Virus record (IMG/VR): IMGVR_UViG_3300005719_000012 | Location: 3,695-67,694 of that record | DNA length: 64,000 bases | Reading direction: 5' to 3' (one strand) | Origin: a virus | Lineage: Duplodnaviria > Caudoviricetes | Shown: one piece after another, positions 3 through 64,000 of the stretch | Layout: each line of letters opens with the position of its first letter | How positions within the stretch are numbered: the stretch's first letter is position 1 | Translations under genes and position numbers: made by a program | Notes under the pieces: generated by a model | Told to the model about the DNA's origin: nothing | Database searches by the model: none | What the model saw: only the letters and a program-made list of their open reading frames with translations

Positions 3-440
3 GTCGGTGTCAAGATGGGCCGTTCGCGTTTATCCGGCATGTTCTACGTCGTTGACGTCGTTCGCGTGCGCAAGGTGCTTGTAGATGATGTAATCCTGTC
101 CGCCGCGAAAATGGACGGTATCATGTGCAAGATCCGTGAAGGCTCCGGATCGGGCAAATCCACGATCAAGGCAAGGTCGATCATGCTTGCGGGGTATGAT
201 TACGAAGCGAGCCCCGAGACAGTAAAGGAAGGCGATAAAGTCAAGCGGTCTAATCCGTTTCGCGCACAATGCCAGAACGGGAATGTTAAGATCCTGCGCG
301 CGCCGTGGAATGACGTTTACCTATCCGTATTGTGTTCATTTCCGGTCGGCAAGTGCGACGACGACGTAGATGGAAGCAGCAACGCGTTTAATTGTTTGGT
401 CGTCGTGCAAATGAAGCCGGTTTATGAGATCTCGTGGTAG
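3..440 (+). CDS. terL: Terminase large subunit, C-terminal nuclease fragment (5'-truncated by window edge)
   Basis: Frame is open from base 3. Motifs GSGSGK, DKVKRSNPF..Q, GNVKILRAPWN and FPVGKCDDDVD are typical of the TerL RNase H-like C-terminus. Lies immediately upstream of the portal. Confidence 0.85.
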   Translation, partial: VGVKMGRSRLSGMFYVVDVVRVRKVLVDDVILSAAKMDGIMCKIREGSGSGKSTIKARSIMLAGYDYEASPETVKEGDKVKRSNPFRAQCQNGNVKILRAPWNDVYLSVLCSFPVGKCDDDVDGSSNAFNCLVVVQMKPVYEISW

Positions 441-10571: not shown

Positions 10572-12155
10572 ATGACTAATCGGCTGCTTCTTATCGGCTT
10601 TTTTGTTTTCGCCCTGTGTGCGTTGTTCGTTGTTGTCAGTCACGCGCAAGTCTCTGGCATCTCGTCTCGCACATTTGGGGATCGCCACTGGCGGGCGCCT
10701 GTCGCGAATTCGTCTCTGCTTCCCGCGTCCGGCAACTCACTCAACGATCGCATTTGCACAAACGACGACGGTAGCGAATACTGGTGGGACGGCGTGACGT
10801 GGCAAGAGGTGCTTGCGGGTGCCGGCGAACCCGGACCTCAAGGCGAGAAGGGCGACCCTGGCGATCCAGGCCCTCAGGGGCCGCAAGGCGTCGCGGGGCC
10901 GGTCGGTCCTCAGGGGGTACAAGGGCCTCAAGGAATTCAAGGCGTACAGGGGCCGACAGGAGCATCGGGTGCGGCAGGCGCCACAGGTCCTACAGGGCCA
11001 CAAGGAGAGAAGGGGGACAAGGGGGACGCGGGAGATACTGGCCCGGCCGGAGCTACTGGGCCAACAGGCTCAACAGGCGCTCAAGGGCCGCAAGGTCCGG
11101 TAGGCGCCGCGGCCTCGATCACGACAGGGGCCGTAGTGACCGGTGCTCCGGGTACGTCCGCCGCGATAATAAATTCCGGAACGTCATCCGCTGCGGTATT
11201 TGACTTTACGATTCCTCGCGGAGATGTCGGCCCCGCGGGAGCAACGGGCGCAACTGGCAGTGTGGGGCCTGCTGGCGCTACGGGCCCTGCGGGCGCGACA
11301 GGAGCAACAGGCCCCCAAGGACCCGCCGGACCTGTCGCGGGGACCGACACGCAAGTCATATTCAACGACGCTGGTGCCGCGGCCGGTGACGCCGGTATGA
11401 CGTACAACAAGACGACAGACACGATCTCGCTTGTTGGATCGGCGAAAGCAGGGAATTTAAAACTCACGGGGAATACATTATCATCAGAGAATACGAACGG
11501 GAATATCCGCCTGATTCCGAACGGCACTGGACAAGATCTTTTGCCGGTCGGTTTGCGGTCTGCTCCTGGGCTCGCGTTCGACTTGGCGGCTACACGCGGG
11601 ATCTACGGGGCAAATGGCGGGTTGCACGTATCGATCTCCGGTACCAACGTGCTCGGCATTGATGGCGGCGGATCTGGCGCGGGCGCGGTTCTCGTTCGTT
11701 CGGCAGCGCAATTTGGATTTTCAAGCAGCGAGCCCGACAGTACAGGACTTGATACGGGAATGAAGCGGGACGCAGCAGGAACGATCGCGTTTACTAACGG
11801 TAGCTCTGGCACTGGTAATATGCGCGTTGGGAAAATCATCCAATACGTCCAGGCTCTCGCGATCGCGGATAACGGCAACGGGGCGACGCGAGCCGCCGCG
11901 ACTCTCACGGCGACCACGAGCTATGTTACCTGCGCTTGTAGCGACGCGCAGGGGTGCGACATAACGGTTTCCGAGACCGGCGCCGTGGACGGGCAAATGC
12001 TGGTGATAGTAAACACGGGCGCGAACGTCTGCGGCTTTGCGGATTCAAGCGGCGTGACGGAAATGGCGGGGAACTTTGATATCCCACAGTGGGGAAGTTT
12101 ACGTTTAATGTACGTGACCGATAGGTTTGTAGAAACCGGAAGGAGCACAAATTGA
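10572..12155 (+). CDS. Collagen-like fibre protein with N-terminal signal peptide
   Basis: Hydrophobic leader MTNRLLLIGFFVFALCALFVVVSHA|Q; two Gly-X-Y blocks; beta-rich fibre-like C-terminus. Confidence 0.85.
   Translation: MTNRLLLIGFFVFALCALFVVVSHAQVSGISSRTFGDRHWRAPVANSSLLPASGNSLNDRICTNDDGSEYWWDGVTWQEVLAGAGEPGPQGEKGDPGDPGPQGPQGVAGPVGPQGVQGPQGIQGVQGPTGASGAAGATGPTGPQGEKGDKGDAGDTGPAGATGPTGSTGAQGPQGPVGAAASITTGAVVTGAPGTSAAIINSGTSSAAVFDFTIPRGDVGPAGATGATGSVGPAGATGPAGATGATGPQGPAGPVAGTDTQVIFNDAGAAAGDAGMTYNKTTDTISLVGSAKAGNLKLTGNTLSSENTNGNIRLIPNGTGQDLLPVGLRSAPGLAFDLAATRGIYGANGGLHVSISGTNVLGIDGGGSGAGAVLVRSAAQFGFSSSEPDSTGLDTGMKRDAAGTIAFTNGSSGTGNMRVGKIIQYVQALAIADNGNGATRAAATLTATTSYVTCACSDAQGCDITVSETGAVDGQMLVIVNTGANVCGFADSSGVTEMAGNFDIPQWGSLRLMYVTDRFVETGRSTN
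10824..11336 (+). repeat. Gly-X-Y collagen repeats: 32 triplets (10824-11111) plus 13 triplets (11220-11336)
   Basis: Counted from the translation. Blocks are interrupted by TGAPGTSAAIINSGTSSAAVFDFTIPRG, a linker common in phage collagen fibres. Confidence 0.95.
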
Positions 12156-20222: not shown

Positions 20223-20678
20223 TTAGCCGCGAATCTGGCCCTCCGCCAGCCCGGTTTCCGCTCCCGTGGCTGTCGTCTCGCTCGGAGCCGCGGGCGTGGA
20301 CGTAGACGTGACCGTGCCGGCAGAAGTCGTACCGCTGATACCGCCTAGCAACGCTTCGATTCGCTGGTCGATCGCCGCGATCTTTGCCGTAGCGGTTGCG
20401 ACAGCTTCGTCGTCGCTGTTCGCGCGAGCCGTATCCAGCTCATTTCGCAGCGTGGCCACTTGGGCCTTGAGGTCCCGTACTTCGCCTTCGACTGACGTGA
20501 CATCGCTGTCCAGGTCCGTGATCTTCTCATTCAACTTGTCCGTCGCTTCACTCATTCGCTTGATCTCCTTTTCGAGTACCATGATTCGTTTCGTGTGCTC
20601 GTCTACTTGTGCGCGGTCGATTGCAACTGCTCGCCAGAGGGTACGTAAGAACCATTCGCTAAGTTTGTTTTGTGACGT
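20223..20678 (-). CDS. Coiled-coil protein with Thr/Ser/Ala-rich tail, antisense to the tail operon
   Basis: Heptad-rich translation. Strong SD AAGGAGG lies 6 nt before an ACG codon at 20678; an alternative ATG gives MSEATDKL. Confidence 0.65.
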   Translation of the reverse strand, partial: TSQNKLSEWFLRTLWRAVAIDRAQVDEHTKRIMVLEKEIKRMSEATDKLNEKITDLDSDVTSVEGEVRDLKAQVATLRNELDTARANSDDEAVATATAKIAAIDQRIEALLGGISGTTSAGTVTSTSTPAAPSETTATGAETGLAEGQIRG

Positions 20679-20709
20679 CGGGCGCCTCCTTTCTTTTCTC
20701 TCGGCACTA

Positions 20710-20739
20710 TTGTAACACAAGCTCCGCCCGTGATATACT
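20710..20739 (+). promoter_or_regulatory. Sigma70-type promoter, probably giving a leaderless mRNA
   Basis: TTGTAA-18-TATACT with an extended TG; ATG 20747 is 7 nt downstream and has no SD. Confidence 0.55.
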
Positions 20740-20746
20740 TCCGCCT

Positions 20747-23152
20747 ATGCTCTTCGGCCTAGAGCCCTTCGGCCTGTCCTCGTTCGGCCTTCGCTACGAT
20801 CCGACATCGGACTTGTCTGTCGCGAATCCTTTAGCGGGATTGTTATCCGACACGTCCCTGCGTCGGTCCTATCTCGTATACGCTACACCGCTAAACCCCC
20901 AGATCGGCGCCCGCGAAGTCGTCAAGCTCGGCGACGGGTTCGCATCTCAATCGGACGACATGCTCCCTTCTCCTTTTCTCTCATCTCTGCCGCACGCACT
21001 ATTCAAAGCTGGGCTTATTGCGCCGTACTCATCGACAAATCGCGTAATGTCCGATGGCCAAATCATCGAAAGCGCTTTGCCGTCACAAGGCGAAATGTCT
21101 TTTGAGACAAACACGAAACGTCTTGCGGAATTGCGATCGCTCGAATGGGACCTTGCGCCAGTCGCGGTACTTATCGGACAGCCGGAATCGCGACTGTCGG
21201 AATTCGTAACGATTTATAACGGTGTCGCGGGAACGGTTAATACGTCGTCTACATCGGAATGCTCCGTTCCGCTACTCGACAAGACACATAGACTCAAGAC
21301 GCCGATTATCACGGAAACGTATCGCGGGTCGGGCGCTGCATTACGCGGCAACGGGACGTCTACCTTCGCGTCAGGAACGTGTGTGTTTCCTGCCGGATCG
21401 ATGACCGTTGAAGTGTGGATCAGGCCGCGAACTTCCTCGACGGTGCAAAAGGATATACTAGGCTGGCGGAATGGCACATCCGCAGGACTTCGCGCACTGC
21501 GACTCATCGCAGGGTCTCTCAACAACACTCCGGCAGCCATAGTTAGAAACGATGCCGGTACCGTGTTCACACTTGCGGCGACTTCTAGTGGCTCGTTTGT
21601 TCTCACAACCGCGATCATGTATCATATAGCGTTCGTGCTGGATGCGGCCAATTTAACGTTGACGTTGGTCATTGATCTAGACAATCTCACTCAAAGCGTC
21701 TATACGATGCCGGTTTCTGGCACGTTTACGACTGTGCTTTCCAATTTTACGCTTTTGCGAACGCCCGACGCATCGGCTAACTTTGCAGATGTTGATATCG
21801 ATGAGGTTAGGATTTTCTCGCGAGCGCTTTCGATCGATGAAATCAACGCGAACCGCGACCGGCAGTTATCCGATCCGGCGACGACGGCCGACTATTACAA
21901 AATAGACGAAGGCACAGGCTCAACGTTATTTGACTCGGGCCCCGGCGCGCATAATCTCACGATCTCGGGCACGGTCAAATGGGTCGGATCGCTTGAAGGT
22001 AATAGCGATCTTGTAGGGCAATATCCGCCTTTGTGGGAAGGCAAGCGGAGGCAAATCGAGCCGGTTAACGTCGATTCGCAGAATTACGTTTATGAAGTCT
22101 CGCGCAATCCCGCGACAACGACGGTTACGGTTGCGGACGTTGCTGATAAAGGCGATCCTACATACATAATCGACGCGCCCGTCGCCGACATCTACGATTG
22201 GACACCCGTAGCGGGACATTGCGTCGTCTCACGAATGGGCGCGCGGACGTTACTACGGTTACAGGCACCACCACAAGGAGCGTTGACTGCCACTGCCACG
22301 ACCGACACGACGGATTTTGCCGGTATCATCCGTAAGCTCGCGCAACGCTATCCAGTCGCGGCGAATCGATTCACGGATGCGGAAATCGACTTAGTAGCGT
22401 TCGCGCGAACCTCCGCGAGCTATCCGCAGATCGGCGGTATTGGTGTTCGTGGCGAAAATCCTACTATCTGGGATCTCATGCAAGAGCTTGCAAAAAAGTC
22501 AGGCGCATGGTTGACTGTACGACGATCCGGCGAGCTTACGTTGCACGTGCTTGAGGAGCCGAGCGCGCCGAAGTTTTTCTTGAACGAAAATGACGTTATC
22601 TCCGGCGCCGTCTCGCTGCTCAACAAGACGCTAGCGGTGAAACGCACAACGCTCAATTACCGGCCTTATCAGACAACACAGCAGGCGACAAACCTTGCGA
22701 CGTCGTTATCTCAAGCAACGAAAGCGGACTTGGCAAAACCGTTCCGGAGCGTATCGACGCCTCTGTCGCCTGCCGTTCTCACGTCCCGCGCATCCGCACT
22801 CGACCTACTTCAAGATACCCTTTACGACGACGGCCAGCAGGCGTATACTGAAGCAGTCAGGCGGCAGGCGCTATGGGGCGTTAACCGTGCGACATATTCG
22901 CTACCGTTATCGCGAGGGTTATATCAGTATTCAATCGGTGACGTCATTGGTGTTACGATACGAGCCGAAGACGGACAGTATGTTGAGAACTTACGTAACG
23001 CGGTTTTAGTTATCGTCGGGTACTCAGAAGACGCGAGCAACAACGCGATCACGTTAGAGGGTTGGGGGTTGTATTACACCGAGATTTACCTGATTACCGA
23101 TGATGGCGAAGTTTTGATCACCGACGACGGCAGAGGATTGGTGATCGATTAA
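20747..23152 (+). CDS. Tail tip hub-like protein with inserted LamG/ConA-like domain
   Basis: SMTVEVWIRP, YHIAFVLD, DIDEVRIFSRALSIDEI and YYKIDEGTGSTLFDSG are LamG signatures. The flanks resemble tail hub proteins. Confidence 0.75.
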   Translation: MLFGLEPFGLSSFGLRYDPTSDLSVANPLAGLLSDTSLRRSYLVYATPLNPQIGAREVVKLGDGFASQSDDMLPSPFLSSLPHALFKAGLIAPYSSTNRVMSDGQIIESALPSQGEMSFETNTKRLAELRSLEWDLAPVAVLIGQPESRLSEFVTIYNGVAGTVNTSSTSECSVPLLDKTHRLKTPIITETYRGSGAALRGNGTSTFASGTCVFPAGSMTVEVWIRPRTSSTVQKDILGWRNGTSAGLRALRLIAGSLNNTPAAIVRNDAGTVFTLAATSSGSFVLTTAIMYHIAFVLDAANLTLTLVIDLDNLTQSVYTMPVSGTFTTVLSNFTLLRTPDASANFADVDIDEVRIFSRALSIDEINANRDRQLSDPATTADYYKIDEGTGSTLFDSGPGAHNLTISGTVKWVGSLEGNSDLVGQYPPLWEGKRRQIEPVNVDSQNYVYEVSRNPATTTVTVADVADKGDPTYIIDAPVADIYDWTPVAGHCVVSRMGARTLLRLQAPPQGALTATATTDTTDFAGIIRKLAQRYPVAANRFTDAEIDLVAFARTSASYPQIGGIGVRGENPTIWDLMQELAKKSGAWLTVRRSGELTLHVLEEPSAPKFFLNENDVISGAVSLLNKTLAVKRTTLNYRPYQTTQQATNLATSLSQATKADLAKPFRSVSTPLSPAVLTSRASALDLLQDTLYDDGQQAYTEAVRRQALWGVNRATYSLPLSRGLYQYSIGDVIGVTIRAEDGQYVENLRNAVLVIVGYSEDASNNAITLEGWGLYYTEIYLITDDGEVLITDDGRGLVID

Positions 23153-25809: not shown

Positions 25810-26931
25810 GTGGGAACACCGATTCGATTACTTCCGAAAAATACGACACCGTCACTAGAAGACGAGATTGCGGAGGCGGCTGTAGGTGGCGGCACTTATC
25901 GAATTTCACTGGAGCAACTAGCTAGCTTAGTCGCTGACGTTGTAGTTTCTCTAATCGAAACTGATGGAGCTGGATTTACTGTCAGAGAAGAAACCGGCGC
26001 AACAGTTCACCCTATCACTATTATCGAAATCGGAGGCGGGCTTACCCTCGGAGATCCATCTCCCGGAATCGCGCGCATCAATCTGGACAAACACGACGCA
26101 GCGAATCATCAGGGAAACTTGTTCCCTGGAGACTCCGATCAGGACTTGGGCGCGCACGCGATCCAGATATCCGAGATCGGTGCGCCAGCCACGCCGACCG
26201 CGGGCAAGCAGACAATATTTCTCAGCAGTTCTTCTCACGAACTATCTGTCAAGAACTCCGCTGGCGTTGTGACCTCTCTGGTCTCCGCTGTTGGTGTTCA
26301 TGATCTCGCCGCTCACACCGGCAACATTATGCCCCTGGATGAGACTCAGTTTCTCGGTCAAGGTGGTGTGAGATTCTCGCCCAGCTCGATCATAAGCACG
26401 CCCAGCGGTCTCGATAAGACTCTATTCAACAACGCAGGCACTCTAAGCGTTATAGCCTTTGGCGGTGGAGTATTCCCACTTGCATACATCAAGGATCATC
26501 CATCCGTTAAGCTGACTAACGAAACTGTATCATCGTCCGCGACATTACAGGATGATGACGATCTATTCGGAGATGTCACATCGGGGCATGTCTACGCTGT
26601 CTATGTGCTGGGTTTTGTTGACAACTCCGGAGATCGAGGAATCAAGGCGGGATTCGGCGGCACTGCAACTGTCTCACTGCTTCGAGCCAATGCGCGACTA
26701 TACAGCGTTACGAATCTTGGAGATATTGCAGCAGAAACGCTTTCGTCTCTCGGAGCCACAATTGCCGGCGGGTCCGGCGCGGCATCTCCAGATCTAGAAT
26801 TGGAGATAAAGGGAACTGTCGTGGCTAGCTCTACAGGGGTTTTTAAATTCCGGTGGGCTCAGGAGTCGGCCTCCGGCTCCACAGTGCTCAAGGCCGGCTC
26901 CCGGATGCTTTTGACGGATATTACGCCGTGA
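25810..26931 (+). CDS. Minor tail / receptor-binding protein
   Basis: C-terminal KLTNETVSSSATLQDDDDL...FKFRWAQ..S..STVLKAGSRMLL module, seen in minor tail proteins. Confidence 0.65.
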   Translation: MGTPIRLLPKNTTPSLEDEIAEAAVGGGTYRISLEQLASLVADVVVSLIETDGAGFTVREETGATVHPITIIEIGGGLTLGDPSPGIARINLDKHDAANHQGNLFPGDSDQDLGAHAIQISEIGAPATPTAGKQTIFLSSSSHELSVKNSAGVVTSLVSAVGVHDLAAHTGNIMPLDETQFLGQGGVRFSPSSIISTPSGLDKTLFNNAGTLSVIAFGGGVFPLAYIKDHPSVKLTNETVSSSATLQDDDDLFGDVTSGHVYAVYVLGFVDNSGDRGIKAGFGGTATVSLLRANARLYSVTNLGDIAAETLSSLGATIAGGSGAASPDLELEIKGTVVASSTGVFKFRWAQESASGSTVLKAGSRMLLTDITP

Positions 26932-26934
26932 TCT

Positions 26935-27783
26935 CTAAGGATTACACCACCCAATCTCTCGGCCGAAGAACACGCACTCAACGCGATCCTCGGTCGCAAG
27001 GCAAGTCTTGCAGACGTCCTCTCCGAACCCGAACTGTTGGTCACAGGCCCGCGGCGTGTAGCACCCCTCACTGCACTTGGGGACCTGCGGATCGACAAAC
27101 TTGCAGAAGTAGGAAGGATCGACGGGATCATCTTTAGGGCCGGTTCCGGAAGTGACAATGGCACTCTTAGGAGCCAGGTTACAGAAGCCTGCAAAAGGGG
27201 CGCAGGAGTGAACCGATCCGCTATCGGCGAGGGAGGCCAGACAGTCCTTGCACTCTTTGACCGTAAGCCCTGTTGCTTCTGCGCACTTGGTCTCGGTGAG
27301 GCAGGAGGCGCTTACACAGTCCGGCACGAGCGCAAAAACATCGCCGCAGGTTAGAGACGCCGGCGGGGACGGTTCATAGTCCTTAGGCGTTGCGTCTTCT
27401 ACCGAGCACGGACCCACGTGCACCAGCTCGATTTGCCTGACTGTCGGGATGGTCCGCGAACCGTCTGCGGTGCATTCCTCTACCTGATAACGGATGCAGT
27501 GCGAAACCGGAGCACTGTCCCTGCAATCGTACGCCGAGCTTGAAGACGTATCACACCGCAACAGCTCGCACCCGAACGCCGAGCCAAGGCAGTCGCCGAT
27601 GTTGTTCCCGTCTCCGGGCTTCATCGCCATGAGGTGCATGTCCGCGGCGGGATAAACCCAAGCTAGCGACCCGGTATGCCACTCTGTGCTGCACGTCGTG
27701 ACACCTGCAAACCCCGGAGCTGCTGCAATCATCGCCACGACCGCCACTACAGCAACCAACACGAACACACTCTTTCTACACAT
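26935..27783 (-). CDS. Secreted Cys-rich protein (24 Cys in mature part)
   Basis: SD aagggga 7 nt before ATG 27783; signal peptide MCRKSVFVLVAVVAVVAMIAAAPGFA|G; internal repeat C..C.T...C....G....CKxCLA occurs twice. Confidence 0.8.
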   Translation of the reverse strand: MCRKSVFVLVAVVAVVAMIAAAPGFAGVTTCSTEWHTGSLAWVYPAADMHLMAMKPGDGNNIGDCLGSAFGCELLRCDTSSSSAYDCRDSAPVSHCIRYQVEECTADGSRTIPTVRQIELVHVGPCSVEDATPKDYEPSPPASLTCGDVFALVPDCVSASCLTETKCAEATGLTVKECKDCLASLADSGSVHSCAPFAGFCNLAPKSAIVTSGTGPKDDPVDPSYFCKFVDPQVPKCSEGCYTPRACDQQFGFGEDVCKTCLATEDRVECVFFGREIGWCNP

Positions 27784-27803
27784 GGACAACTCCCCTTTGA
27801 AAC

Positions 27804-27831
27804 AGGCGGCTCTCGAAATTGAAAGCCGCCT
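27804..27831 (-). terminator. Intergenic hairpin (attenuator or weak terminator)
   Basis: AGGCGGCT/AGCCGCCT 8-bp stem with a 12-nt loop and only a short T tract. Confidence 0.45.
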
Positions 27832-27885
27832 TCACAGCAATAAGACACGATCTTGTCGAGATTGTTTAGTTGAGAGCCCTGCCGC

Positions 27886-28104
27886 TTACCTGGCAGCGCT
27901 CGTGCCTACAGTCCAGGTCTGGCAGGTGACTTCAGCCGTGGGCTCAGGGCCGGTGCATCCGGTGTAAGCCTGGCAAGTCCAAGCTTCGGTGCACATCATG
28001 TTCCCAGAGGTTCCTTCGCCGCGCACCTGAGTCATTTCCGCGTTGTTGAGGCGGATAATCGTTTCCTTTGCTAGCACTAACTTCACCAGCTTCGACCTTT
28101 TCAT
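27886..28104 (-). CDS. RiPP (lanthipeptide-like) precursor peptide 2
   Basis: SD aagggga; leader MKRSKLVKLVLAKETIIRLNNAEMTQVRG(E); core GTSGNMMCTEAWTCQAYTGCTGPEPTAEVTCQTWTVGTSAAR has 4 Cys and is Thr-rich. Confidence 0.75.
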   Translation of the reverse strand: MKRSKLVKLVLAKETIIRLNNAEMTQVRGEGTSGNMMCTEAWTCQAYTGCTGPEPTAEVTCQTWTVGTSAAR

Positions 28105-28218
28105 GGCTATCCCCTTGCGTGCATCATTCCGGCCTTGTTGGACATGTGAGGATCGTGCAACATGCTGTACCTTGGGTGTCCACCGGGACTTGCGTATCCT
28201 TTTATCTTTTATCGTGGA

Positions 28219-28575
28219 CTACCTGTGCACGCCTGCGCAAATCACGCCGTTGGACCGACCCAAGAGAGCGCCGGCAAGGCCGACGGAAGCGAAAAGCCCG
28301 CCAGATGTGCTTTGCCGCCCGAACGCACCATAGTTCTGGTACTCGGGCCCGCAGATTTCGCCCCGGGTGTATTCATGGTCGCCCACCTGCTGGCAGGCAT
28401 AACAGTTGTTCATACAACCGCAAGACCCCGGTTGAAAGGGGCCCCACTGCGCGCAATCGTCCCAGCAGTAATCAAAGCACGAACAAAAACTTTGCCCGCA
28501 TGACGCACTGACAGGAATGGCGCTAAAAACAAGAAAAACCACAAAAACCACGAGTGCGCTTGTAAGCTGTCTCAT
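28219..28575 (-). CDS. Secreted Cys-rich small protein (11 Cys)
   Basis: SD aaggga; signal peptide MRQLTSALVVFVVFLVFSAIPVSA|S; CGQSFCSCFDYCWDDC...CGCMNNCYAC. Confidence 0.75.
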   Translation of the reverse strand: MRQLTSALVVFVVFLVFSAIPVSASCGQSFCSCFDYCWDDCAQWGPFQPGSCGCMNNCYACQQVGDHEYTRGEICGPEYQNYGAFGRQSTSGGLFASVGLAGALLGRSNGVICAGVHR

Positions 28576-28666
28576 TTGTCTGTTCCCTTTCTTTGAAAAA
28601 GTAACGGGCCGAGCCGATACTCGCGCCCCGAGTCGAGAGCGACATCAGCCACACGCTGACGTCCCC

Positions 28667-28888
28667 TCAGTAGATTGGAGGTTGACAAGTCACCTCATAA
28701 CTTGGCTCACAATAGCACGTATAATAACACGTCTGGCACGTGTCAACGTAAACGCAAACAGTGCCATTGCTATTGCCGGCAGGCTCGGAATAATGGCCCG
28801 TATAGCCGCCACGAATCAGAGAATTGGACAGATTCGTGAGAGTCTCTCTAGACAAAGATAACCTGTGAGCCGCTATTTTCTTTTTCAT
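28667..28888 (-). CDS. RiPP (lanthipeptide-like) precursor peptide 1, 73 aa
   Basis: SD aaggaag; leader MKKKIAAHRLSLSRETLTNLSNSLIRGG; core YTGHYSEPAGNSNGTVCVYVDTCQTCYYTCYCEPSYEVTCQPPIY has 6 Cys and 9 Ser/Thr. Confidence 0.8.
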   Translation of the reverse strand: MKKKIAAHRLSLSRETLTNLSNSLIRGGYTGHYSEPAGNSNGTVCVYVDTCQTCYYTCYCEPSYEVTCQPPIY

Positions 28889-28937
28889 TTTCTTCCTTTC
28901 TTCTTCTGGATTATCCAAGAATGGTGGTGGTCTGCGG

Positions 28938-29495
28938 TTATTGACCAAGCAGCTCATCTCGCAACATTGCCCGTACCTTCTCCATAAGCTCTTTACAGCG
29001 CAGCAATCCCTCACGCTCGACAACCATCCATTGAATCACCCGCGTTGCTGCCCGGTCAATTGCTTCATCATACGCCTTGCTGAGGTCGTTGTCAAGTGCT
29101 ATATCCTCGTACGATCGCATCTCTGGGCTTGGCTCTGGCCCGTCGATGAGATTGCGACACTCGATCATACGAGCAAAGGAAGAGACTTCCGTAGGGAACA
29201 GGGCTATCGCTTCGAGTACGACATTGCCGCTAGAATCTAAAACGTTATACGATTGCAGAACATCATCGGTATGAGAGGAGGATTGCGGCTCTAGCCGCCA
29301 AGTCGTTATTTCCGACACCTTGCACTTCTCGCACGACCGCAAGTCAACAAACGGTCGGCCGCACTCGCTGCATACGTCATCGTCTTCAAGGTACGCGGGA
29401 ACAATCAGCGGCGGATGCCACGCGCCGAAGTCGAAAGTTTGATCGTACATTGCGGCGTTCATGAGTCTGTCCGTGCCAGTCGTCTCTGTGCTCAT
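28938..29495 (-). CDS. Hypothetical protein with CxxC...CxxC zinc ribbon
   Basis: CSECGRPFVDLRSCEKC; ggag SD. Confidence 0.6.
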   Translation of the reverse strand: MSTETTGTDRLMNAAMYDQTFDFGAWHPPLIVPAYLEDDDVCSECGRPFVDLRSCEKCKVSEITTWRLEPQSSSHTDDVLQSYNVLDSSGNVVLEAIALFPTEVSSFARMIECRNLIDGPEPSPEMRSYEDIALDNDLSKAYDEAIDRAATRVIQWMVVEREGLLRCKELMEKVRAMLRDELLGQ

Positions 29496-29500
29496 TTCTT

Positions 29501-29764
29501 TTAGCTCCGCTGATTGTAGAATCCATCATAGAGATCTTCGAGCTTATGTATCCTGTCCTCTAGTTTCGACTGATAGGATGGAGTGTGTTTACGCGGTTCT
29601 CTTTCACAATCGCGACAAGCACTACGTAGCCCGTCTGACTTTCTTCTGTCTGAGCTAAAACACAACACATGCAACTCGTGCTGGCATCGTGTGCAGATTT
29701 TCGTGCCCGTCGTCGCCGGCTCGTGAGTACCTTTCTTGGGCCGTGCCATATCCATCCTACTCAC
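29501..29764 (-). CDS. Stand-alone zinc-finger DNA-binding protein
   Basis: KICTRC....CFSSDRRKSDGLRSACRDC, the finger usually found N-terminal in HNH/EndoVII homing nucleases. No nuclease domain follows. Confidence 0.6.
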   Translation of the reverse strand: MSRMDMARPKKGTHEPATTGTKICTRCQHELHVLCFSSDRRKSDGLRSACRDCEREPRKHTPSYQSKLEDRIHKLEDLYDGFYNQRS

Positions 29765-30005
29765 CGCACTCCTCGGTGCCCTCCCCCAGTCCCATCAAAA
29801 CATCCCACGCCCGCGCACGGTCGCCTATCAAGCTCGCGAGTTCCTTGCGAGGATCACGAAACTTCTTCAGGTGATCGTAATAGATCTCAGGCTTTCCGCC
29901 GTGCGTGGTCGTAACCAGTGCCGCATACGAGGCTGCAAGAGCGTCTTCGGAAGCGCGAGAAACACCTACACGCTTCAGTGATTTAGTGGCTTGCTCAAAG
30001 TCCAT
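29757..30005 (-). CDS. Hypothetical protein
   Basis: Starts MDFEQATKSL; overlapping operon arrangement. Confidence 0.5.
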   Translation of the reverse strand: MDFEQATKSLKRVGVSRASEDALAASYAALVTTTHGGKPEIYYDHLKKFRDPRKELASLIGDRARAWDVLMGLGEGTEECGE

Positions 30006-30225
30006 ATCGACGCTCCTCTGTCTGCTGCTGGTGCTCGATGTCGTCACCGCGATGTTCGGCACGTCCGTACACGGTCTCATAGTAATCATCTTCGTCTATG
30101 GCTACTTGCGTAGATCGTCTTATTGCGATTTCCGCCGCGATCTCGTCATTCGTCCACAGCGCGATTAACGACTTCTGGGTCTCGGTTGTAGACATGTACC
30201 TGCTAGTCTGGTCCTTGGTGCTCAT
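29995..30225 (-). CDS. Hypothetical protein
   Basis: ATGA overlap; SD gagggg. Confidence 0.5.
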   Translation of the reverse strand: MSTKDQTSRYMSTTETQKSLIALWTNDEIAAEIAIRRSTQVAIDEDDYYETVYGRAEHRGDDIEHQQQTEERRYGL

Positions 30226-30527
30226 CGCTTTGTCCCCCTCTTTGGTGTAAGCGCCGCAACAAAATCCCGCATTGTCTTGTTACGCTCGATCGGATCATTT
30301 GCCAGCTCGCGGCCCGTCTTGTGCCAGCCTTCTGGTGCTGGCGTATCGACATGCGCGCAGCGGACACCCCACTTCGCGCCCGTCTGATTGCGAAAGGTCT
30401 CAAGATCCGGGAACCATCCAAGAACGAGACTCCCGCGAACGCCAAGGCTCGAATACAGATATAGCTTGCGTGCCTTGCCGTCGTAGATCTGCGGCTCGGA
30501 GGGCGCATCAATGATCTTGGCGCTCAT
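30222..30527 (-). CDS. Hypothetical protein
   Basis: Starts MSAKIIDAPSEP after SD gagggag. Confidence 0.5.
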   Translation of the reverse strand: MSAKIIDAPSEPQIYDGKARKLYLYSSLGVRGSLVLGWFPDLETFRNQTGAKWGVRCAHVDTPAPEGWHKTGRELANDPIERNKTMRDFVAALTPKRGTKR

Positions 30528-30664
30528 CGACTCTCCCTCGCGATCACCGCCGTTACGATCCGTCCATTCGCGAGCTGATACTCCATCCACGACGCACCCC
30601 GACAAAGCTCCCAGGCAACCGAGACCGTGCGGCCGTCAGGAAGAGGAGGGCTAGGTATTGTCAT
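30524..30664 (-). CDS. 46-aa hypothetical protein (MTIPSPPLPDGRTVSVAWELC...)
   Basis: SD aggagg; abuts both neighbours. Confidence 0.45.
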   Translation of the reverse strand: MTIPSPPLPDGRTVSVAWELCRGASWMEYQLANGRIVTAVIARESR

Positions 30665-30665
30665 C

Positions 30666-31226
30666 TTAGACCTCCTTGCAATCGTGATCATCGGAAGGGC
30701 CGGACAGCGGGACGCCGCAGCCGCGGCAGATCCAGCCAGCAGGCGCACTGTTGTCAAGAGGCTCAAGCTCCGGGACTATAATGGCATCTGGGTCGTCGTC
30801 AATAACTGACGTAGAGACGGCAATCGTCTGTGACATATACCACGGCGACGACCCGCATACGTAAACGACCCATCGCGATCCGCCGGCCCAGAACCAGTTG
30901 CGGATGATGCGCCCTGACCGCGTAATGTTATGCACAGCCAGCTCTATCCGACGATCGCCGTCGTAGCACTCCCATCCGCCGCAGCGAGATCGTGCGATCA
31001 CCCATCCATCCGGCAGGTCGAGACACAGCGGCACTCGGGTCTCAGTGTAGGCGTTGGTCTCGGGAGTCCCAAGCGCAGGGCCGAGGAGCAGGGCGTCTAC
31101 GCGCATAAGGTCGCGGGAGATGGACAGCTCAGCGTTGGCAGTCAGCTCGGGCTGGATCTGACTTGACATGGCGCTCTCCTTTTTTGGTTTCTCGGCCGCG
31201 TCATCGCGGTCGATCTCGGTTGCCAT
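30666..31226 (-). CDS. Hypothetical protein, first gene of the leftward operon
   Basis: 186 aa; C-terminal CxxC; internal second start with SD aaggag. Confidence 0.55.
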   Translation of the reverse strand: MATEIDRDDAAEKPKKESAMSSQIQPELTANAELSISRDLMRVDALLLGPALGTPETNAYTETRVPLCLDLPDGWVIARSRCGGWECYDGDRRIELAVHNITRSGRIIRNWFWAGGSRWVVYVCGSSPWYMSQTIAVSTSVIDDDPDAIIVPELEPLDNSAPAGWICRGCGVPLSGPSDDHDCKEV

Positions 31227-31232
31227 GTACGT

Positions 31233-31262
31233 ACACTAAGCTCACGCCCTATCCGTCGTCAA
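31233..31262 (-). promoter_or_regulatory. Leftward promoter, leaderless start
   Basis: TTGACG-18-TAGTGT; ATG 31226 is 6 nt after the -10. Confidence 0.6.
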
Positions 31263-31506
31263 TGTGCCCGGTGCTCAAACTTTGCGCAGTCATGACGTAA
31301 CTCTCTAATCCATAAGGCCGAACGCGCGCAACACGATCTTATCTGCGATGCGCGAGAGGGGCAGAATCAAGCTCCCATCCGGACTTGGCACAAGAGAGAC
31401 GAATCCCGCGCGCGAGAGAGAGGGAGGGAGGTGTGCGAGTCTGGCAACGGTCGCGGGCAGGGGCATCATGCAAGGAAGTCTAGCATGAGCAGGAGCACCC
31501 GAAACC

Positions 31507-31597
31507 GTCCTCGAAAGAGGACAAGATGTAAAAGTTGTAAAATCTTTGATCGGGGCGCGAAAAGGGGCTTGACAGGTACGGACCGGTCCGGTAGAGT
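31507..31597 (+). promoter_or_regulatory. Tripartite promoter copy 1
   Basis: GTCCTC-gaaa-GAGGAC, AGTTGTAAAATCTTTG, TTGACA-17-TAGAGT; palindrome CGGACCGGTCCG in the spacer; ATG 31605 is 7 nt after the -10. Confidence 0.8.
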
Positions 31598-31604
31598 GCG
31601 GTCC

Positions 31605-31811
31605 ATGAGAAACAACACGTGGAACGGTCCTCAAGCCCATCTCTCCTCTACCACTACCGGTGGCGGCAAAGCGAGCTGCGGGAACAAGAGAGCACATTTG
31701 ACTCTCCCAGAGGAGCGCTTTGGGTTAGAAGATGTAGAGTGGCAGTGCCAGAAATGCCGAGCGATCTACATGCGGTCGATCGCCCGTCGACCCCGTAACG
31801 AAGGAGAATGA
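31605..31811 (+). CDS. Hypothetical protein (leaderless), C-terminal CxxC
   Basis: Starts MRNNTWNGPQ directly after the promoter. Confidence 0.55.
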   Translation: MRNNTWNGPQAHLSSTTTGGGKASCGNKRAHLTLPEERFGLEDVEWQCQKCRAIYMRSIARRPRNEGE

Positions 31812-52622: not shown

Positions 52623-52840
52623 TCGGTTTGTCTGTCCGCGCTGCGGTGGGACTGGTAAGTGTAAAGAAGTGGACGGATATAAGATGAAGGCTGCTTCGGA
52701 AAGCAACCAATGTTAGTTTGAGAGAAATGGCCAGCCGGCTTAACATCAGCGCGATGTATCTATCGGATCTGGAGCTAGGTCGAAGAAACTTTTCCGAAGA
52801 ACTTGCACGTAGATTCGTGGCCGAATGCTCCATATCGTGA
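52603..52840 (+). pseudogene. Zn-ribbon plus XRE HTH protein split by a +1 indel near 52687
   Basis: CPRCGGTGKCKEVDGYKM in one frame continues as RLLRKATNVSLREMASRLNISAMYLSDLELGRRN in the next; ATA follows the ggagg SD. Confidence 0.55.
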
Positions 52841-55629
52841 ATCCTCTTGCTACTGCCGTCTTCGGCTTCGGCCGTACACCGAACGACATAATGCTTGTTG
52901 GCGAAGGCCCGGGCGCCGAAGAATACCGCTACGGAAAGCCGTTTATCGGCCCTAGTGGCATAGAACAAGACTGGTATCTCGCAGCGCACGATCTCTCCTC
53001 ACGCTTCTGGTACAAAACGAACGTCTCGAAAACCTTCATCCCCGGCAATCCCGACCCGGACGATGCACTAATCTCCTTTTGGTCGTCCTGGCTTGAGGAC
53101 GAGATCCGCGAGTGCTCCCCTAAACTTATCATCGCGGTCGGCAAAATCGCGGCAACGTGGTTCCTGCACAAACGCCGTGACATGGAGACGATTCACGGAA
53201 TACCGTTTCCTGTGACCGTCGCTGGCGTACGCGCGATCGTAATTCCGATTTTCCACCCTGCGTATGGCCTACGCAACCCGGATATTAAAGGTACGATCGC
53301 TTGGGATTATTCAATCGGCGCGACCGCGGTACGACTCGCACAGCGCACGTCCCGCGAGTCGTTCTACGCGCACTATGCCGCGCAGACTCCCGTTAACGAA
53401 ATTCCGTCGCCGAAATACACAGAACTCTCCGGCCCGGACTTCATCTCCGCGATGCGCCCCTACGAAGATTCTCTCCTCGGCGCGCCTATCGAATTCGGCC
53501 TTGATACCGAAGGCTGGACAGACTACCCGTGGCCGCAGTGGCTGCAAATCTCACCCGAACCCGGCGTATCGTACATTCTCAAGTCGGGCCGCAAAAACAA
53601 CGGATTCGATCTCGCGATTCGCAAGCTGCAATCCTACATCGATCGCGGATCTACCGTCGTCGCGCATCAGGCGGGCTCACCCTCGGGCGCAATGATCGAT
53701 ACGCAGATCTGTCGCATTCTTGGGCTTGAGCTTCGAGACGCTTGCCTCGACGACACGATGTACGCGGCTTACCTCCTGCGCGTATTGTCTCGCGGCCTCA
53801 AGCCTTTATGCTTCCGATTCGCCGGCATGGAAATGGACAATTACGAAGGCATCATCGGCGACATTGGCCGCGCGAAACAAATCGACTACCTGCGGCGCGC
53901 CTTGACGCATAACTGGACTAAGCCTGATTCGTACCCCGAACGCCAGAACGACGGTACGTGGAAGATCAAATCGCCGAAGTCAATGGCCGTGCTTATCGAG
54001 GGCGTTCTCCGCGATATTGACAGCGGCAAGATTCTCAAAGATGGGCCGACTGATCCTGAAAAACGCTGGCGGAAGTTTCCAAAGCGCAGCCGCCGGGAGA
54101 TCTCTGCGGCCATGGGCACGTTCCCGCGCGGTACACTTGACGACGTCGATCCTAAACTCGCAAACGGTTACGCGGGCGCGGACTCAGACGGCGTACTGCG
54201 AATCAAGCCACGCATACTTCATGAGCTAGACGCACTTGGCTTAATCCCTATCTACAATCAAGCGATGAGATTCCTGCCCATCGTTGAAGACATGCAACGC
54301 GAGGGCATGCCGGCGCGACGTTCAAAATTCAACGCGTTGCAATCGTACATCTTGCGCGAGAAGCTAAAAATGCAACGCGAGATAAACGAAATAAACGGTA
54401 AGCCGATTAACGTCAACTCGCCAAAGCAGATGATTCCCGCGTTACGCCGAATGTCCGTTACGCCACGCAAGCGCACAAAATCAGGCGCACCTTCGATCAG
54501 TAAGAAGAGCCTAGAGTACGCGAAGCACTTCTCGCGCTTCGTACTACTGTCATTCCAAATCAAGGAGCACGGCAAAATCGAGAGCACGTACTGCCGCCCT
54601 GCGATCGATATTGCCGATAATAAAGACGTGGATGGTGCGCCCGATAATGACGAATTCATTGTCAATTCGTTTTTCCAGGCCGCAAAGCTAACGTCACGAC
54701 GACTCGCAACCGAAAAGCCCTCGCTGCTGAATCAGCCCAAGCGAACAAAAATCGGTCGCATGGTCCGCGATTGCTACGTATTTCCTGCAAAGCGTGAAGT
54801 CTGTGAATATGACTTCAAGGCGCAAGAGTTACGCGTCGCGGTGTCGATCTCTCGCGACCCGTTCGGCATCCAAATGTTCACGAAGTGCTCGATATGCGGT
54901 GTGGACCTGCCAACAAAATCTCCATGTCGCAAGGACGACAAAGGCGAGCACAGCGACCCGCACAGACAAGCTGCCGCGCGTATCTTCGGTATTGACTACC
55001 GCGACGTAGATAAATACGAGCATCGCTTGCCCGCAAAGACTGCTACATTCGGCGTCATCAACGGATTGTCTGACCTCGGCCTTGTCGATCAATTTCTTAT
55101 GTACATCCCTCCCGGCCCTGACGGTGTTCATCCGTGGGCGAAAGTATCTGACTGTGAGCATCTGATTAAGGAGATCCTAACAAAGGTTTACAGGGGAATC
55201 GGTGAGGAGATCAAAGCCACGGAGCGATATCTACGCGCTCATGGGCTCGTACGTGACGTCTATGGCGACAATCAACCCGGGATGCTGCGCTACCTGCCCA
55301 ATGGTCGCTCAGAACGCCAGCGCGACCGTGCAGAGGCAATCCGCCAAGGGTTTAATCATCGCGTCCAGGGTACCGCAGCGCAAATGTCTCAAGCGTCGAT
55401 GGTATGGTGCGATCTGCATATCCGCAAGATGCAGCGGCGCGGCGTAGATGTGCACTGGCACTTACTTTCGCATGATGCGTTTATGTTGTCTTATCCGCCG
55501 CAGTATCGCGAGCAGGTTGGCGCGATCATTCTAGAAGGTATGACGAAACATCATGGTGTTAAACTCTGCGTCCCCGTCGAGGCTGACGGGGAGTTTGCGC
55601 AGTCTTGGGGGGAGTTGAAAAAAGACTAG
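52825..55629 (+). CDS. polA: Family A DNA polymerase with N-terminal family-4 UDG-like domain and 3'-5' exonuclease
   Basis: UDG: LVGEGPGAEE...PFIGPSG and FHPAY. Exonuclease: LDTEG and DTMYAAYLL. Polymerase: motif A YDFKAQELRV, motif B AKTATFGVING, motif C SHDA. Confidence 0.9.
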   Translation: MLHIVNPLATAVFGFGRTPNDIMLVGEGPGAEEYRYGKPFIGPSGIEQDWYLAAHDLSSRFWYKTNVSKTFIPGNPDPDDALISFWSSWLEDEIRECSPKLIIAVGKIAATWFLHKRRDMETIHGIPFPVTVAGVRAIVIPIFHPAYGLRNPDIKGTIAWDYSIGATAVRLAQRTSRESFYAHYAAQTPVNEIPSPKYTELSGPDFISAMRPYEDSLLGAPIEFGLDTEGWTDYPWPQWLQISPEPGVSYILKSGRKNNGFDLAIRKLQSYIDRGSTVVAHQAGSPSGAMIDTQICRILGLELRDACLDDTMYAAYLLRVLSRGLKPLCFRFAGMEMDNYEGIIGDIGRAKQIDYLRRALTHNWTKPDSYPERQNDGTWKIKSPKSMAVLIEGVLRDIDSGKILKDGPTDPEKRWRKFPKRSRREISAAMGTFPRGTLDDVDPKLANGYAGADSDGVLRIKPRILHELDALGLIPIYNQAMRFLPIVEDMQREGMPARRSKFNALQSYILREKLKMQREINEINGKPINVNSPKQMIPALRRMSVTPRKRTKSGAPSISKKSLEYAKHFSRFVLLSFQIKEHGKIESTYCRPAIDIADNKDVDGAPDNDEFIVNSFFQAAKLTSRRLATEKPSLLNQPKRTKIGRMVRDCYVFPAKREVCEYDFKAQELRVAVSISRDPFGIQMFTKCSICGVDLPTKSPCRKDDKGEHSDPHRQAAARIFGIDYRDVDKYEHRLPAKTATFGVINGLSDLGLVDQFLMYIPPGPDGVHPWAKVSDCEHLIKEILTKVYRGIGEEIKATERYLRAHGLVRDVYGDNQPGMLRYLPNGRSERQRDRAEAIRQGFNHRVQGTAAQMSQASMVWCDLHIRKMQRRGVDVHWHLLSHDAFMLSYPPQYREQVGAIILEGMTKHHGVKLCVPVEADGEFAQSWGELKKD

Positions 55630-58622: not shown

Positions 58623-58916
58623 TCAATCTTCCCCTAGTGAGTCATTCAACCGCCGGGCATAATTGCTTGTGTCGCTCTTGCCGTTTCGTGCGTCACATTC
58701 CCTCTGCGACTGTTCGCGGTCTTCAAACTCTAGTATAAAACCTTCCTCAGTTTTGGCGTACTCGCGTCGTATGCGCTTTCCCTCCGGATGTCTGAATATC
58801 CGCCAGAACACTCGTCCTGTTGGGCCGTCCGCGCATTGTGTTAGCTGCCAAAGCATATATATAATCTTCTCTCTTATGCTCGTACCCACATCACGACTCA
58901 ATCCTTGTGAGCCCAA
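58623..58916 (-). CDS. Hypothetical protein
   Basis: 97 aa in operon. Confidence 0.45.
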   Translation of the reverse strand: MGSQGLSRDVGTSIREKIIYMLWQLTQCADGPTGRVFWRIFRHPEGKRIRREYAKTEEGFILEFEDREQSQRECDARNGKSDTSNYARRLNDSLGED

Positions 58917-59500
58917 GACTGAGGTAAGCCAGGAACATTCTCAATTCGCCACCTTTTGGCAATTTTTCCTCCGATAACACGAATCATATCGCTCAGTTCG
59001 TCGTCGCCGTCGTCAGAAGCCAGTAAGGCGGCGGTGACGATGCCCGATAAAACCCTATCCTGCGCATGATGCAAAAGATCGCGCTTCGAGCGATTGCGGC
59101 CTCGCGCAACGTGCGCTCCTGCGCGAGCGACAAAATTGCGCTCCGGAACTACTCGAAACTCTCCTGTTTCAAGGTTGACCTCGCATGTTAACTTCTCCGT
59201 TTCGGTCGGTCGGCCAGCAAGTCTTGCGTCTACGTCCGCGGCCTTACAGCGATGGACGCCTGTATGTCCTTTATCTCGCGTGCACACATTATGGCCAAAA
59301 CCCGGAACTTGCTCACGACACTCACCAATAGAGCTGATGAGGGCAATATGTCGCTTTGCCGCACATCGTTCCGAATCGCCCGCCATAAATCCGCGCCACC
59401 ACTCCTTGCCGGCCTTGGTGCGCCCGTCGTAGGGGCACGTCAAGCCGTAGGGGCTGGCGAGTCCGGCGGTGTAGCCTTCGTTATACTGTTGATCACTCAT
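58898..59500 (-). CDS. Hypothetical protein (RMF-like CPY...WWRG motif, C..H..HxC)
   Basis: GYTAG.....CPY.......WWRGF; CTRDKGHTGVHRC; SD aggagg. Confidence 0.55.
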   Translation of the reverse strand: MSDQQYNEGYTAGLASPYGLTCPYDGRTKAGKEWWRGFMAGDSERCAAKRHIALISSIGECREQVPGFGHNVCTRDKGHTGVHRCKAADVDARLAGRPTETEKLTCEVNLETGEFRVVPERNFVARAGAHVARGRNRSKRDLLHHAQDRVLSGIVTAALLASDDGDDELSDMIRVIGGKIAKRWRIENVPGLPQSWAHKD

Positions 59501-63937: not shown

Positions 63938-63977
63938 GGAGTATCCAACGTACCTTTGAGGGTAGGATCGAAATCTT

Positions 63978-64000
63978 CCCCCCCCCCCCCCCCCCCCCCC
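63978..64000. repeat. Terminal poly-C run (23 nt), probable library/assembly artefact
   Basis: Homopolymer running to the window end. Confidence 0.6.

Follow-up and report, generated by a model that had tools for sequence, protein, structure and literature searches.

Precursors of RiPPs (peptides made by the ribosome and modified after translation) are usually seen as parts of bacterial gene clusters. The sublancin cluster of the Bacillus prophage SPbeta is a phage-borne case, in which a Cys-rich secreted peptide with a Gly-Gly leader is encoded together with an exported or membrane immunity protein, and this prophage brings its own exporter-peptidase, glycosyltransferase and thiol-disulfide oxidoreductases. 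For the precursors of class I lanthipeptides (LanAs), a leader motif LxLxKx5L has been described, in leaders that frequently terminate in Gly-Gly and go together with C39 proteases (Walker et al. 2020, PMC7268733). In the prochlorosin systems, one promiscuous enzyme, ProcM or SyncM, serves tens of dispersed precursors (cf. PMC9872173). Finally, Llp of phage T5 is a small exported superinfection-exclusion protein that blocks the receptor, and its gene lies next to that of the receptor-binding protein, on the downstream side (PMC9586334). Here, we analysed a 64,000-nucleotide stretch of DNA (the window) from the tailed-phage record IMGVR_UViG_3300005719_000012 of IMG/VR, in which two predicted LanA-type precursors, pre1 and pre2, alternate with two predicted Cys-rich exported proteins, Cys118 and Cys284, in a four-gene region behind the tail genes. 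The precursors are orphans in this phage, which encodes none of the proteins expected to mature or export them.

The original prediction, made from the letters of the window, took pre1 and pre2 for RiPP precursors, and profile searches agree with it. The NCBIfam model NF038153 (lant_leader_L1a, class I lanthipeptide; curated cut-off, 22 bits) scored pre2 at 29.3 bits as a protein and at 30.2 bits in six-frame translation, above the cut-off, and pre1 at 19.8 and 20.4 bits, below it; the two peptides were the only matches to this model in the six frames of the whole phage. The leader of pre2 contains LVLAKETIIRL, an exact LxLxKx5L motif, and the 28-residue leader of pre1 contains LSLSRETLTNL (LxLxRx5L), in which Arg replaces Lys as in many Acidobacteriota members. 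At their ends, the pre1 leader has RGG, and hence a Gly-Gly site, and the pre2 leader has RGEG, which is not a canonical Gly-Gly cleavage site. The cores comprise 45 residues with 6 Cys, 6 Thr and 3 Ser (9 Ser/Thr) in pre1 and 41 residues with 4 Cys, 10 Thr and 2 Ser (12 Ser/Thr) in pre2, numbers that would allow thioether rings in both, and their composition is like that of the 131 bacterial cores described below. The two peptides are 37% identical and keep Cys and Thr at matching places of the core (TCQ, EVTCQ), indicating that they are paralogues. An ESM Atlas search with pre2 had a Lant_leader_dom cluster as its top match at 0.87, which we use as a lead only. Word-indexed homologue searches with pre2, with a pre1 and pre2 alignment and with Cys284 returned the phage's own proteins only, and none of the four proteins had a match in PHROGs. 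Taken together, both peptides can be assigned as genuine class I lanthipeptide leader peptides of the L1a type.

The phage has no dehydratase, cyclase or peptidase-exporter. Searches with the profiles LANC_like, Lant_dehydr_N, Lant_dehydr_C, Radical_SAM, YcaO and Peptidase_C39 gave no match in the six frames of the whole 67,694-bp record, and a Pfam scan of about 40 phage proteins detected none of these maturation and export families. As positive controls, the LanB search gave matches in bacterial genomes and the Peptidase_C39 search gave matches in 7 genomes. The lack of a synthetase or exporter, first noted for the window, extends to the entire record in these searches: a synthetase encoded elsewhere in the genome was looked for and none was found, as the 3.7 kb outside the window, where five open reading frames (ORFs) were scanned against Pfam, hold only the terminase and small ORFs. 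Precursors with neither an enzyme nor an exporter of their own would therefore have to use or interfere with host machinery.

Because word-based protein searches gave no relatives, we scanned IMG/VR and a collection of 185,579 species genomes with a strict degenerate DNA pattern (MKK...LxLxxETxRxL...GG). The survey for precursor-only phages, which the original prediction had suggested, was productive: IMG/VR contained additional phage contigs that encode similarly built orphan peptides, among them a complete phage of 118.7 kb (IMGVR_UViG_3300019874_000002, G001) with at least five dispersed leader-type peptides of 4-6 Cys each, two of them in tandem, another complete phage of 97 kb, a provirus and a contig of 30 kb. 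We found no paper on phage-borne orphan lanthipeptide precursors in a literature search whose coverage was incomplete and which is thus no proof of novelty. Phage-borne orphan precursors of the lanthipeptide type seem to be real, recurrent and undescribed.

In the species genomes, the pattern matched at least 120 loci (L089-L208). About five in six of the matches listed were in metagenome-assembled genomes (MAGs) of soil Acidobacteriota, chiefly Thermoanaerobaculia, and the minority included a few Kofleriaceae, Holophagales and Bacteroidota. From these loci, 76 peptides were taken by a strict motif and 131 by a relaxed motif; they are 44-80 residues long, with cores rich in Cys and Ser/Thr. 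pre1 has the 8-mer LSLSRETL in common with four of the bacterial peptides (L128, L143, L145 and L159), and its best full-length match among the matches listed is a Thermoanaerobaculia peptide (L178), with 45% identity over 58 residues. pre2 has the 7-mer LVLAKET in common with another (L095). A hidden Markov model (HMM) built from 76 Acidobacteriota leaders scored pre1 at 25.1 bits and pre2 at 19.0 bits, and the next phage ORF had an E value of 2. Separately, two Kofleriaceae MAGs carry tandem peptides with the same leader type, whose cores have 1 Cys and 13-15 Ser/Thr, a different core chemistry (Table 1).

Clustering of the large ORFs around the first 80 of the at least 120 loci gave full-length LanB (Lant_dehydr_N plus Lant_dehydr_C; 7), LanC (6) and an ATP-binding cassette exporter with a C39 peptidase (C39-ABC; 4) as the most recurrent neighbours, and one locus (L107) has the gene order exporter, peptide, LanB. 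Most of the bacterial peptides are without a LanB, LanC or C39-ABC neighbour, as such neighbours occur at only about 7 of the 80 loci. In three large genomes, the precursor-like genes are numerous and lie far from the enzymes: 17 leader matches and 3 Lant_dehydr_N matches in G004 (OY970330.1, 8.8 Mb), with 61 kb between the nearest peptide and LanB; 29 and 2 in G005 (OY970373.1, 7.7 Mb; 96 kb); and 20 and 3, two of these being adjacent pieces of one locus, in G007 (7.5 Mb; 64 kb). This arrangement, with few LanB-type enzymes and many unlinked precursors, looks like a class I counterpart of the prochlorosins. Since the bacterial enzymes evidently already serve many dispersed precursors, the use of host enzymes in trans on phage precursors is plausible. 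The original idea that the phage feeds its own substrates into host RiPP machinery has on its side the genuine leaders, the missing phage synthetase and, most strongly, the LanB, LanC and C39-ABC proteins of the bacteria with the closest leaders, which would already act in trans, and it stands as plausible.

The number of Cys residues bears on what would happen to the cores. Among the 131 bacterial cores, 66 have an even and 65 an odd number, and this unbiased parity fits thioethers rather than disulfides. The phage-borne cores, with 8 of 10 even, including the 6 and 4 here, hint at disulfides instead, although the signal is weak (p ~0.05). Disulfide folding would be expected if the host peptidase-ABC exporter simply released pre1 and pre2 unmodified, like class II microcin-type toxins or signals, and for many L1a leaders a Gly-Gly end does go together with a C39 exporter (PMC7268733). 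We nevertheless regard export without modification as rather unlikely, because the phage cores are as rich in Ser/Thr as the bacterial LanB-associated ones, most visibly in pre2, because both peptides keep the conserved leader motif of the family, presumably the dehydratase-recognition element, and because pre2 has no Gly-Gly site for cleavage.

The conservation of Cys and Thr between the two paralogous cores suggests that the product matters, and not the leader alone. This argues against a decoy function, in which leader mimics made in bulk would occupy the host LanB, LanC or exporter and thereby shut down a host lanthipeptide that limits the phage. The decoy function gains from an anti-phage lanthipeptide family reported in Streptomyces (bioRxiv 10.1101/2024.06.26.600839; review PMC12360287), from the end of the pre2 leader, which could make this peptide a poorly released substrate, and from the apparently virulent lifestyle of the phage, to which antibiotic production would be of little benefit. 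As there is no evidence of antiviral lanthipeptides in Acidobacteriota, we consider it quite improbable.

The layout of the locus is as originally described: the minus strand carries all four ORFs in one orientation, and an AAGG(A/G)-type Shine-Dalgarno (SD) sequence lies 5-9 nt upstream of every start (Table 1). The intergenic gaps are 91, 114 and 102 nt, in the order from pre1 to Cys284. An upstream TTG at 27789 is an alternative start for Cys284 and would give a protein of 284 residues, and 3 nt separate the stop of Cys284 from that of the convergent fibre-like gene. Two stable hairpins follow pre1, and the second, G+C-rich with a U-run after it, looks like a terminator or attenuator; a further hairpin lies between pre2 and Cys284. 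The sigma-70-like promoter match upstream of pre1 is a match to the consensus only, in a scanned region with 6 such sites versus 3.3 expected. For the cassette, no RNA run was listed; the single DNA run is a rhizosphere metagenome that may have been the source sample.

By a codon model built from 19 long phage genes, the annotated frame ranked best of six for three of the four ORFs, and the score of Cys118 tied with one other frame. On a near-identical twin contig, a public gene caller chose an antisense ORF of 113 residues instead of Cys118, and Cys118 has no relatives, as would be expected if some or all of the small ORFs were not genes and the region were a spacer after the tail module. That reading is highly improbable in view of the leader-model match above the curated cut-off, the paralogous pair, the SD sequences at all four starts, the codon scores of the other three ORFs and the relatives of Cys284, with their conserved Cys and a confident fold. 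Cys118 itself is probably a real gene, which rests on an ATG with an SD sequence, a signal peptide of canonical form and 10 Cys in the region that would be exported. In the six frames of the window, a signal-like N-terminus together with at least 6% Cys was found only in Cys118 and Cys284; as these are the only two such ORFs, and pre1 and pre2 the only two peptides that match the leader model, their clustering here is not due to chance.

Cys284 is predicted to be exported by Sec and to consist of three fused disulfide-rich modules (A, B and C; Table 1). An exhaustive HMMER search of 1.84 billion representatives gave 25 proteins, including Cys284 itself. One of these, P0005, a eukaryotic repeat protein of 1888 residues (E 6e-23), was rejected as a relative, its score being inflated by repeats that each contribute about 27 bits on the linker region. 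The remaining relatives are small secreted proteins of 77-145 residues, nearly all with a single module, and each matches one part of Cys284. Alignments show that modules B and C are paralogous 8-Cys modules, which, together with the 8 conserved Cys of module A, explain every one of the 24 Cys in the mature protein. AlphaFold2 models had predicted local distance difference test (pLDDT) values of 90 for module A and 79 for module B, and fold searches with these two modules gave generic similarities only, to the oligonucleotide/oligosaccharide-binding (OB) fold, with Z scores up to 8.2, and to winged-helix-like folds with three helices and a hairpin. The signal peptide ends in PGFAG/VTTC, a signal-peptidase-I type site with no lipobox, and those of the relatives are likewise. 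Cys118 has a signal peptide of about 24 residues, an exported region with 10 Cys and, in a hydrophobic stretch at the C-terminus, one further Cys; its signal peptide ends in VSA/SC, which is ambiguous as a lipobox. We found no match for Cys118 in Pfam, NCBIfam or PHROGs and no usable match in the ESM Atlas, and Cys118 and Cys284 are unrelated to each other.

All single-module relatives that could be placed adjoin virion genes in phage-like contigs, at 7 loci. The neighbour belongs to the virion structural family phrog_3287 next to module A in L001 and L013, module B in L003 and module C in L010, and also, by its likeness to L010, next to module B in L009; in L005, module C adjoins a homologue of the fibre-like gene of this phage. 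The related contigs L009 and L010 carry module B and module C, respectively, at the same site, convergent with the same phrog_3287-type gene and with nearly the same signal peptide, which suggests that the exported module was swapped between them in a cassette-like manner. IMG/VR searches with Cys284 and the fibre gene as queries found no related loci.

These loci also bear on whether the four genes form one system, as the original prediction held in proposing the Cys-rich proteins as immunity or partner factors. In such a system, there would be two pairs of precursor and partner, and each Cys-rich protein would be an immunity, chaperone or receptor factor for the upstream peptide. The order of precursor, hairpin and exported protein does occur twice within 2 kb, and the four products are all Cys-rich and bound for the envelope or the outside, being the only such ORFs in the window. 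LanI-type lantibiotic immunity proteins are exported and membrane-attached too. However, Cys118 and Cys284 are unrelated although pre1 and pre2 are paralogous, and neither matched a LanI-type or other immunity family in Pfam or NCBIfam. In other phages, the three modules are found singly: no leader-type peptide was found in the 68.6 kb flanking the module relatives, where positive controls scored 20-35 bits, and in these loci there is no linkage to precursor genes. Conversely, no relatives of Cys284 or Cys118 were found in the other phage loci with orphan precursors or in the 120 bacterial precursor loci examined. The single-system part of the prediction finds no support in these observations, and a system of two pairs is unlikely. 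We give little credence, too, to a host-dependent two-pair RiPP module of an undescribed kind, by which soil phages would routinely carry leader mimics that enter a host class I lanthipeptide system with few enzymes and many precursors and so reprogramme or jam the chemical output of the infected cell, with the Cys-rich proteins as the matching protection or partners.

The explanation that we favour, with a confidence only a little better than even, is an island of accessory genes situated where the tail module of a complete soil phage ends, and in it two kinds of cargo, LanA-type precursors matured by the host and independent Cys-rich proteins acting on the envelope, would have accumulated. 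It is simpler than a four-gene system because the two kinds of gene assort independently in every other genome examined. According to this explanation, the pre1 and pre2 leaders would copy the LxLxKx5L leader of soil diderm bacteria, being most like those of Acidobacteriota (Thermoanaerobaculia). In the infected cell, host LanB and LanC would bind these leaders, given that the phage encodes no dehydratase, cyclase or peptidase-exporter, and would dehydrate and cyclise the Ser/Thr/Cys-rich cores; at least pre1, with its Gly-Gly site, may then be cut and exported by a host C39-ABC transporter. Cys118 and Cys284 would be accessory proteins of the phage itself rather than dedicated RiPP partners, most resembling, by gene position alone, receptor-masking or superinfection-exclusion proteins. 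This role is favoured because the location next to the receptor-binding end of the virion genes recurs, recalling T5 Llp. We infer the host, the modification, the export and every biological role from sequence.

Several observations weigh against this explanation. As to the precursors, the pre1 score lies below the curated cut-off of the leader model, pre2 is without a canonical Gly-Gly site, and the even Cys numbers of the phage-borne cores hint, weakly, at disulfides. As to the host, the taxon tally is biased, because the pattern had been fitted to a single leader sub-type and the at least 120 loci are those listed, and the best match of pre2 among the matches listed is a Bacteroidales peptide, which limits host assignment. 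The G+C content of the phage is 54%, as compared with a median of 68% in the Acidobacteriota loci, and a search of 401 Thermoanaerobaculia genomes found neither module A nor the portal, which gives no support for a host link and is not evidence against one. The suggested route through the bacteria with the closest leaders, which was also to predict the host, led to Acidobacteriota with LanB, LanC and C39-ABC; given these limits, soil Acidobacteriota (Thermoanaerobaculia) are taken as a plausible host group. As to the exported proteins, superinfection exclusion is suggested by position only, with no clear lipobox and no sequence or fold match to Llp or Cor, and the tight interleaving of precursor, hairpin and exported protein, twice in this order, could reflect functional pairing in this phage.

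The setting of the four genes is a phage genome judged 100% complete by CheckV, of which the window covers bases 3695-67694. The virion module, on the plus strand, includes a tape-measure-sized gene of 1744 residues and ends with the fibre-like gene; the four-gene region follows immediately, on the minus strand, and forms the far end of a leftward block (26935-31697). Replication genes include a fusion of uracil-DNA glycosylase and PolA, a helicase and others. No tyrosine integrase was found in the phage, and since PolA and the helicase are present, the phage is probably virulent. The window has no tRNA genes, and the closest portals of cultured phages, at no more than 32.5% identity, give no clue to the host. 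Elsewhere in the window, the N-terminus of a 200-residue protein, which may be a phage translation modulator, scored 27.0 bits against ribosome modulation factor (PF04957), under the cut-off of 27.9. Within the leftward block, an 87-residue Cys-containing protein has similarity to PHROGs of endonuclease VII, HNH and Lar-like restriction alleviation, in their zinc-finger parts (E 2e-8 to 1e-5). At its end, the record has more than 20 consecutive C, most likely an artefact of assembly or sequencing and not the genome end.

Table 1 Coordinates of the features described in the text. Positions are those of the window unless a locus or residues are given.
Feature	Position	Strand	Description
pre1	28667-28888	-	73 residues; SD AAGGAAG; best of six frames by codon score
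Cys118	28219-28575	-	118 residues, 11 Cys; ATG with SD AAGGGAA
pre2	27886-28104	-	72 residues; positive codon score, best of six frames
Cys284	26935-27783 (from ATG)	-	282 residues, 24 Cys after signal peptide; codon score 37 units above next frame
Cys284 module A	residues ~14-130		8 conserved Cys; OB-fold-like
Cys284 module B	residues ~130-205		8 Cys; three helices and hairpin
Cys284 module C	residues ~224-282		8 Cys; three helices and hairpin
Two stable hairpins after pre1	28595-28669	-	-44.3 kcal/mol; z -4.15; as good a fold in 0 of 200 shuffles
Hairpin between pre2 and Cys284	27805-27830	-	11 bp, G+C-rich, then UGUUUC; whole spacer z -2.17
Sigma-70-like promoter match	29067-29095	-	TTGACA-17-TATGAT, 11/12; ~180 nt upstream of pre1, inside the preceding 185-residue ORF
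Last tail-fibre-like gene of virion module	25810-26931	+	homologous to the 437-residue fibre-like gene in L005
Portal	434-1969
Collagen-like tail fibre	10572-12155
Minor tail protein	20672-23152
Family A DNA polymerase	52825-55629	+	single 934-residue protein with N-terminal domain of the uracil-DNA-glycosylase superfamily
Protein with PF04957-like N-terminus	58898-59500	-	200 residues
Zinc-finger-like protein	29501-29764	-	87 residues
Run of C at record end	~63975-64000
Orphan peptide genes of G001	L032:7152-7355, L032:12043-12255, L083:1393-1748, L084:1390-1578
Module B relative	L009:618-893
Module C relative	L010:8001-8285
Bacterial locus with exporter, peptide and LanB	L107:903-7885
Kofleriaceae tandem peptides	L094:942-1347, L150:5643-6072

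If the explanation that we favour is true, a virus that carries only the substrates and relies on the enzymes of its host would represent a new way of taking over a host or of waging chemical warfare, and the phage precursors would be a natural test of the promiscuity of class I lanthipeptide enzymes, for which the LanB, LanC and C39-ABC clusters of Thermoanaerobaculia MAGs are candidates for testing. The analysis also indicates Acidobacteriota as carriers of large, dispersed libraries of class I precursors, and it points to three new disulfide-rich secreted modules, placed by phages beside virion or tail genes, as candidate receptor maskers in uncultured soil phage-host pairs.

Among the described systems, the superinfection-exclusion lipoproteins T5 Llp and T1/phi80 Cor (PMC9586334) share with Cys118 and Cys284 the encoding of a small exported protein beside the receptor-binding end of the tail module, a placement seen again for relatives of all three modules. 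The likeness is one of position only, as the signal of Cys284 is of the signal-peptidase-I type, each module has 8 Cys, and our searches detected no sequence or fold similarity. Unlike SPbeta, this phage brings no exporter-peptidase, glycosyltransferase or oxidoreductases of the sublancin kind. The prochlorosins resemble the bacteria with the closest leaders, in which 17-29 scattered precursor-like genes face 2-3 LanB-type genes and the enzyme would act in trans; prochlorosin enzymes are of class II (LanM) and from cyanobacteria, whereas those here would be of class I (LanB plus LanC) and from Acidobacteriota, their promiscuity being read from gene counts. The closest counterparts of pre1 and pre2 are the class I LanAs of NF038153 (RODEO family I-17, with pinensin; PMC7268733), with which they share the leader motif, Ser/Thr/Cys-rich cores of 40-45 residues and, in pre1, the Gly-Gly end; pre2 exceeds the HMM cut-off, and the leaders are close to those of peptides encoded beside LanB, LanC and C39-ABC in Acidobacteriota. 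They differ from these LanAs in residing in a phage that has no LanB, LanC or exporter, in the score of pre1, below the cut-off, and in the GEG end of pre2, and they are precursors known here from sequence alone. pre1 and pre2 can thus be placed as members of a known family in a new setting, to which this locus adds a paralogous precursor pair, a candidate host group with a dispersed class I library and three new families of secreted modules.

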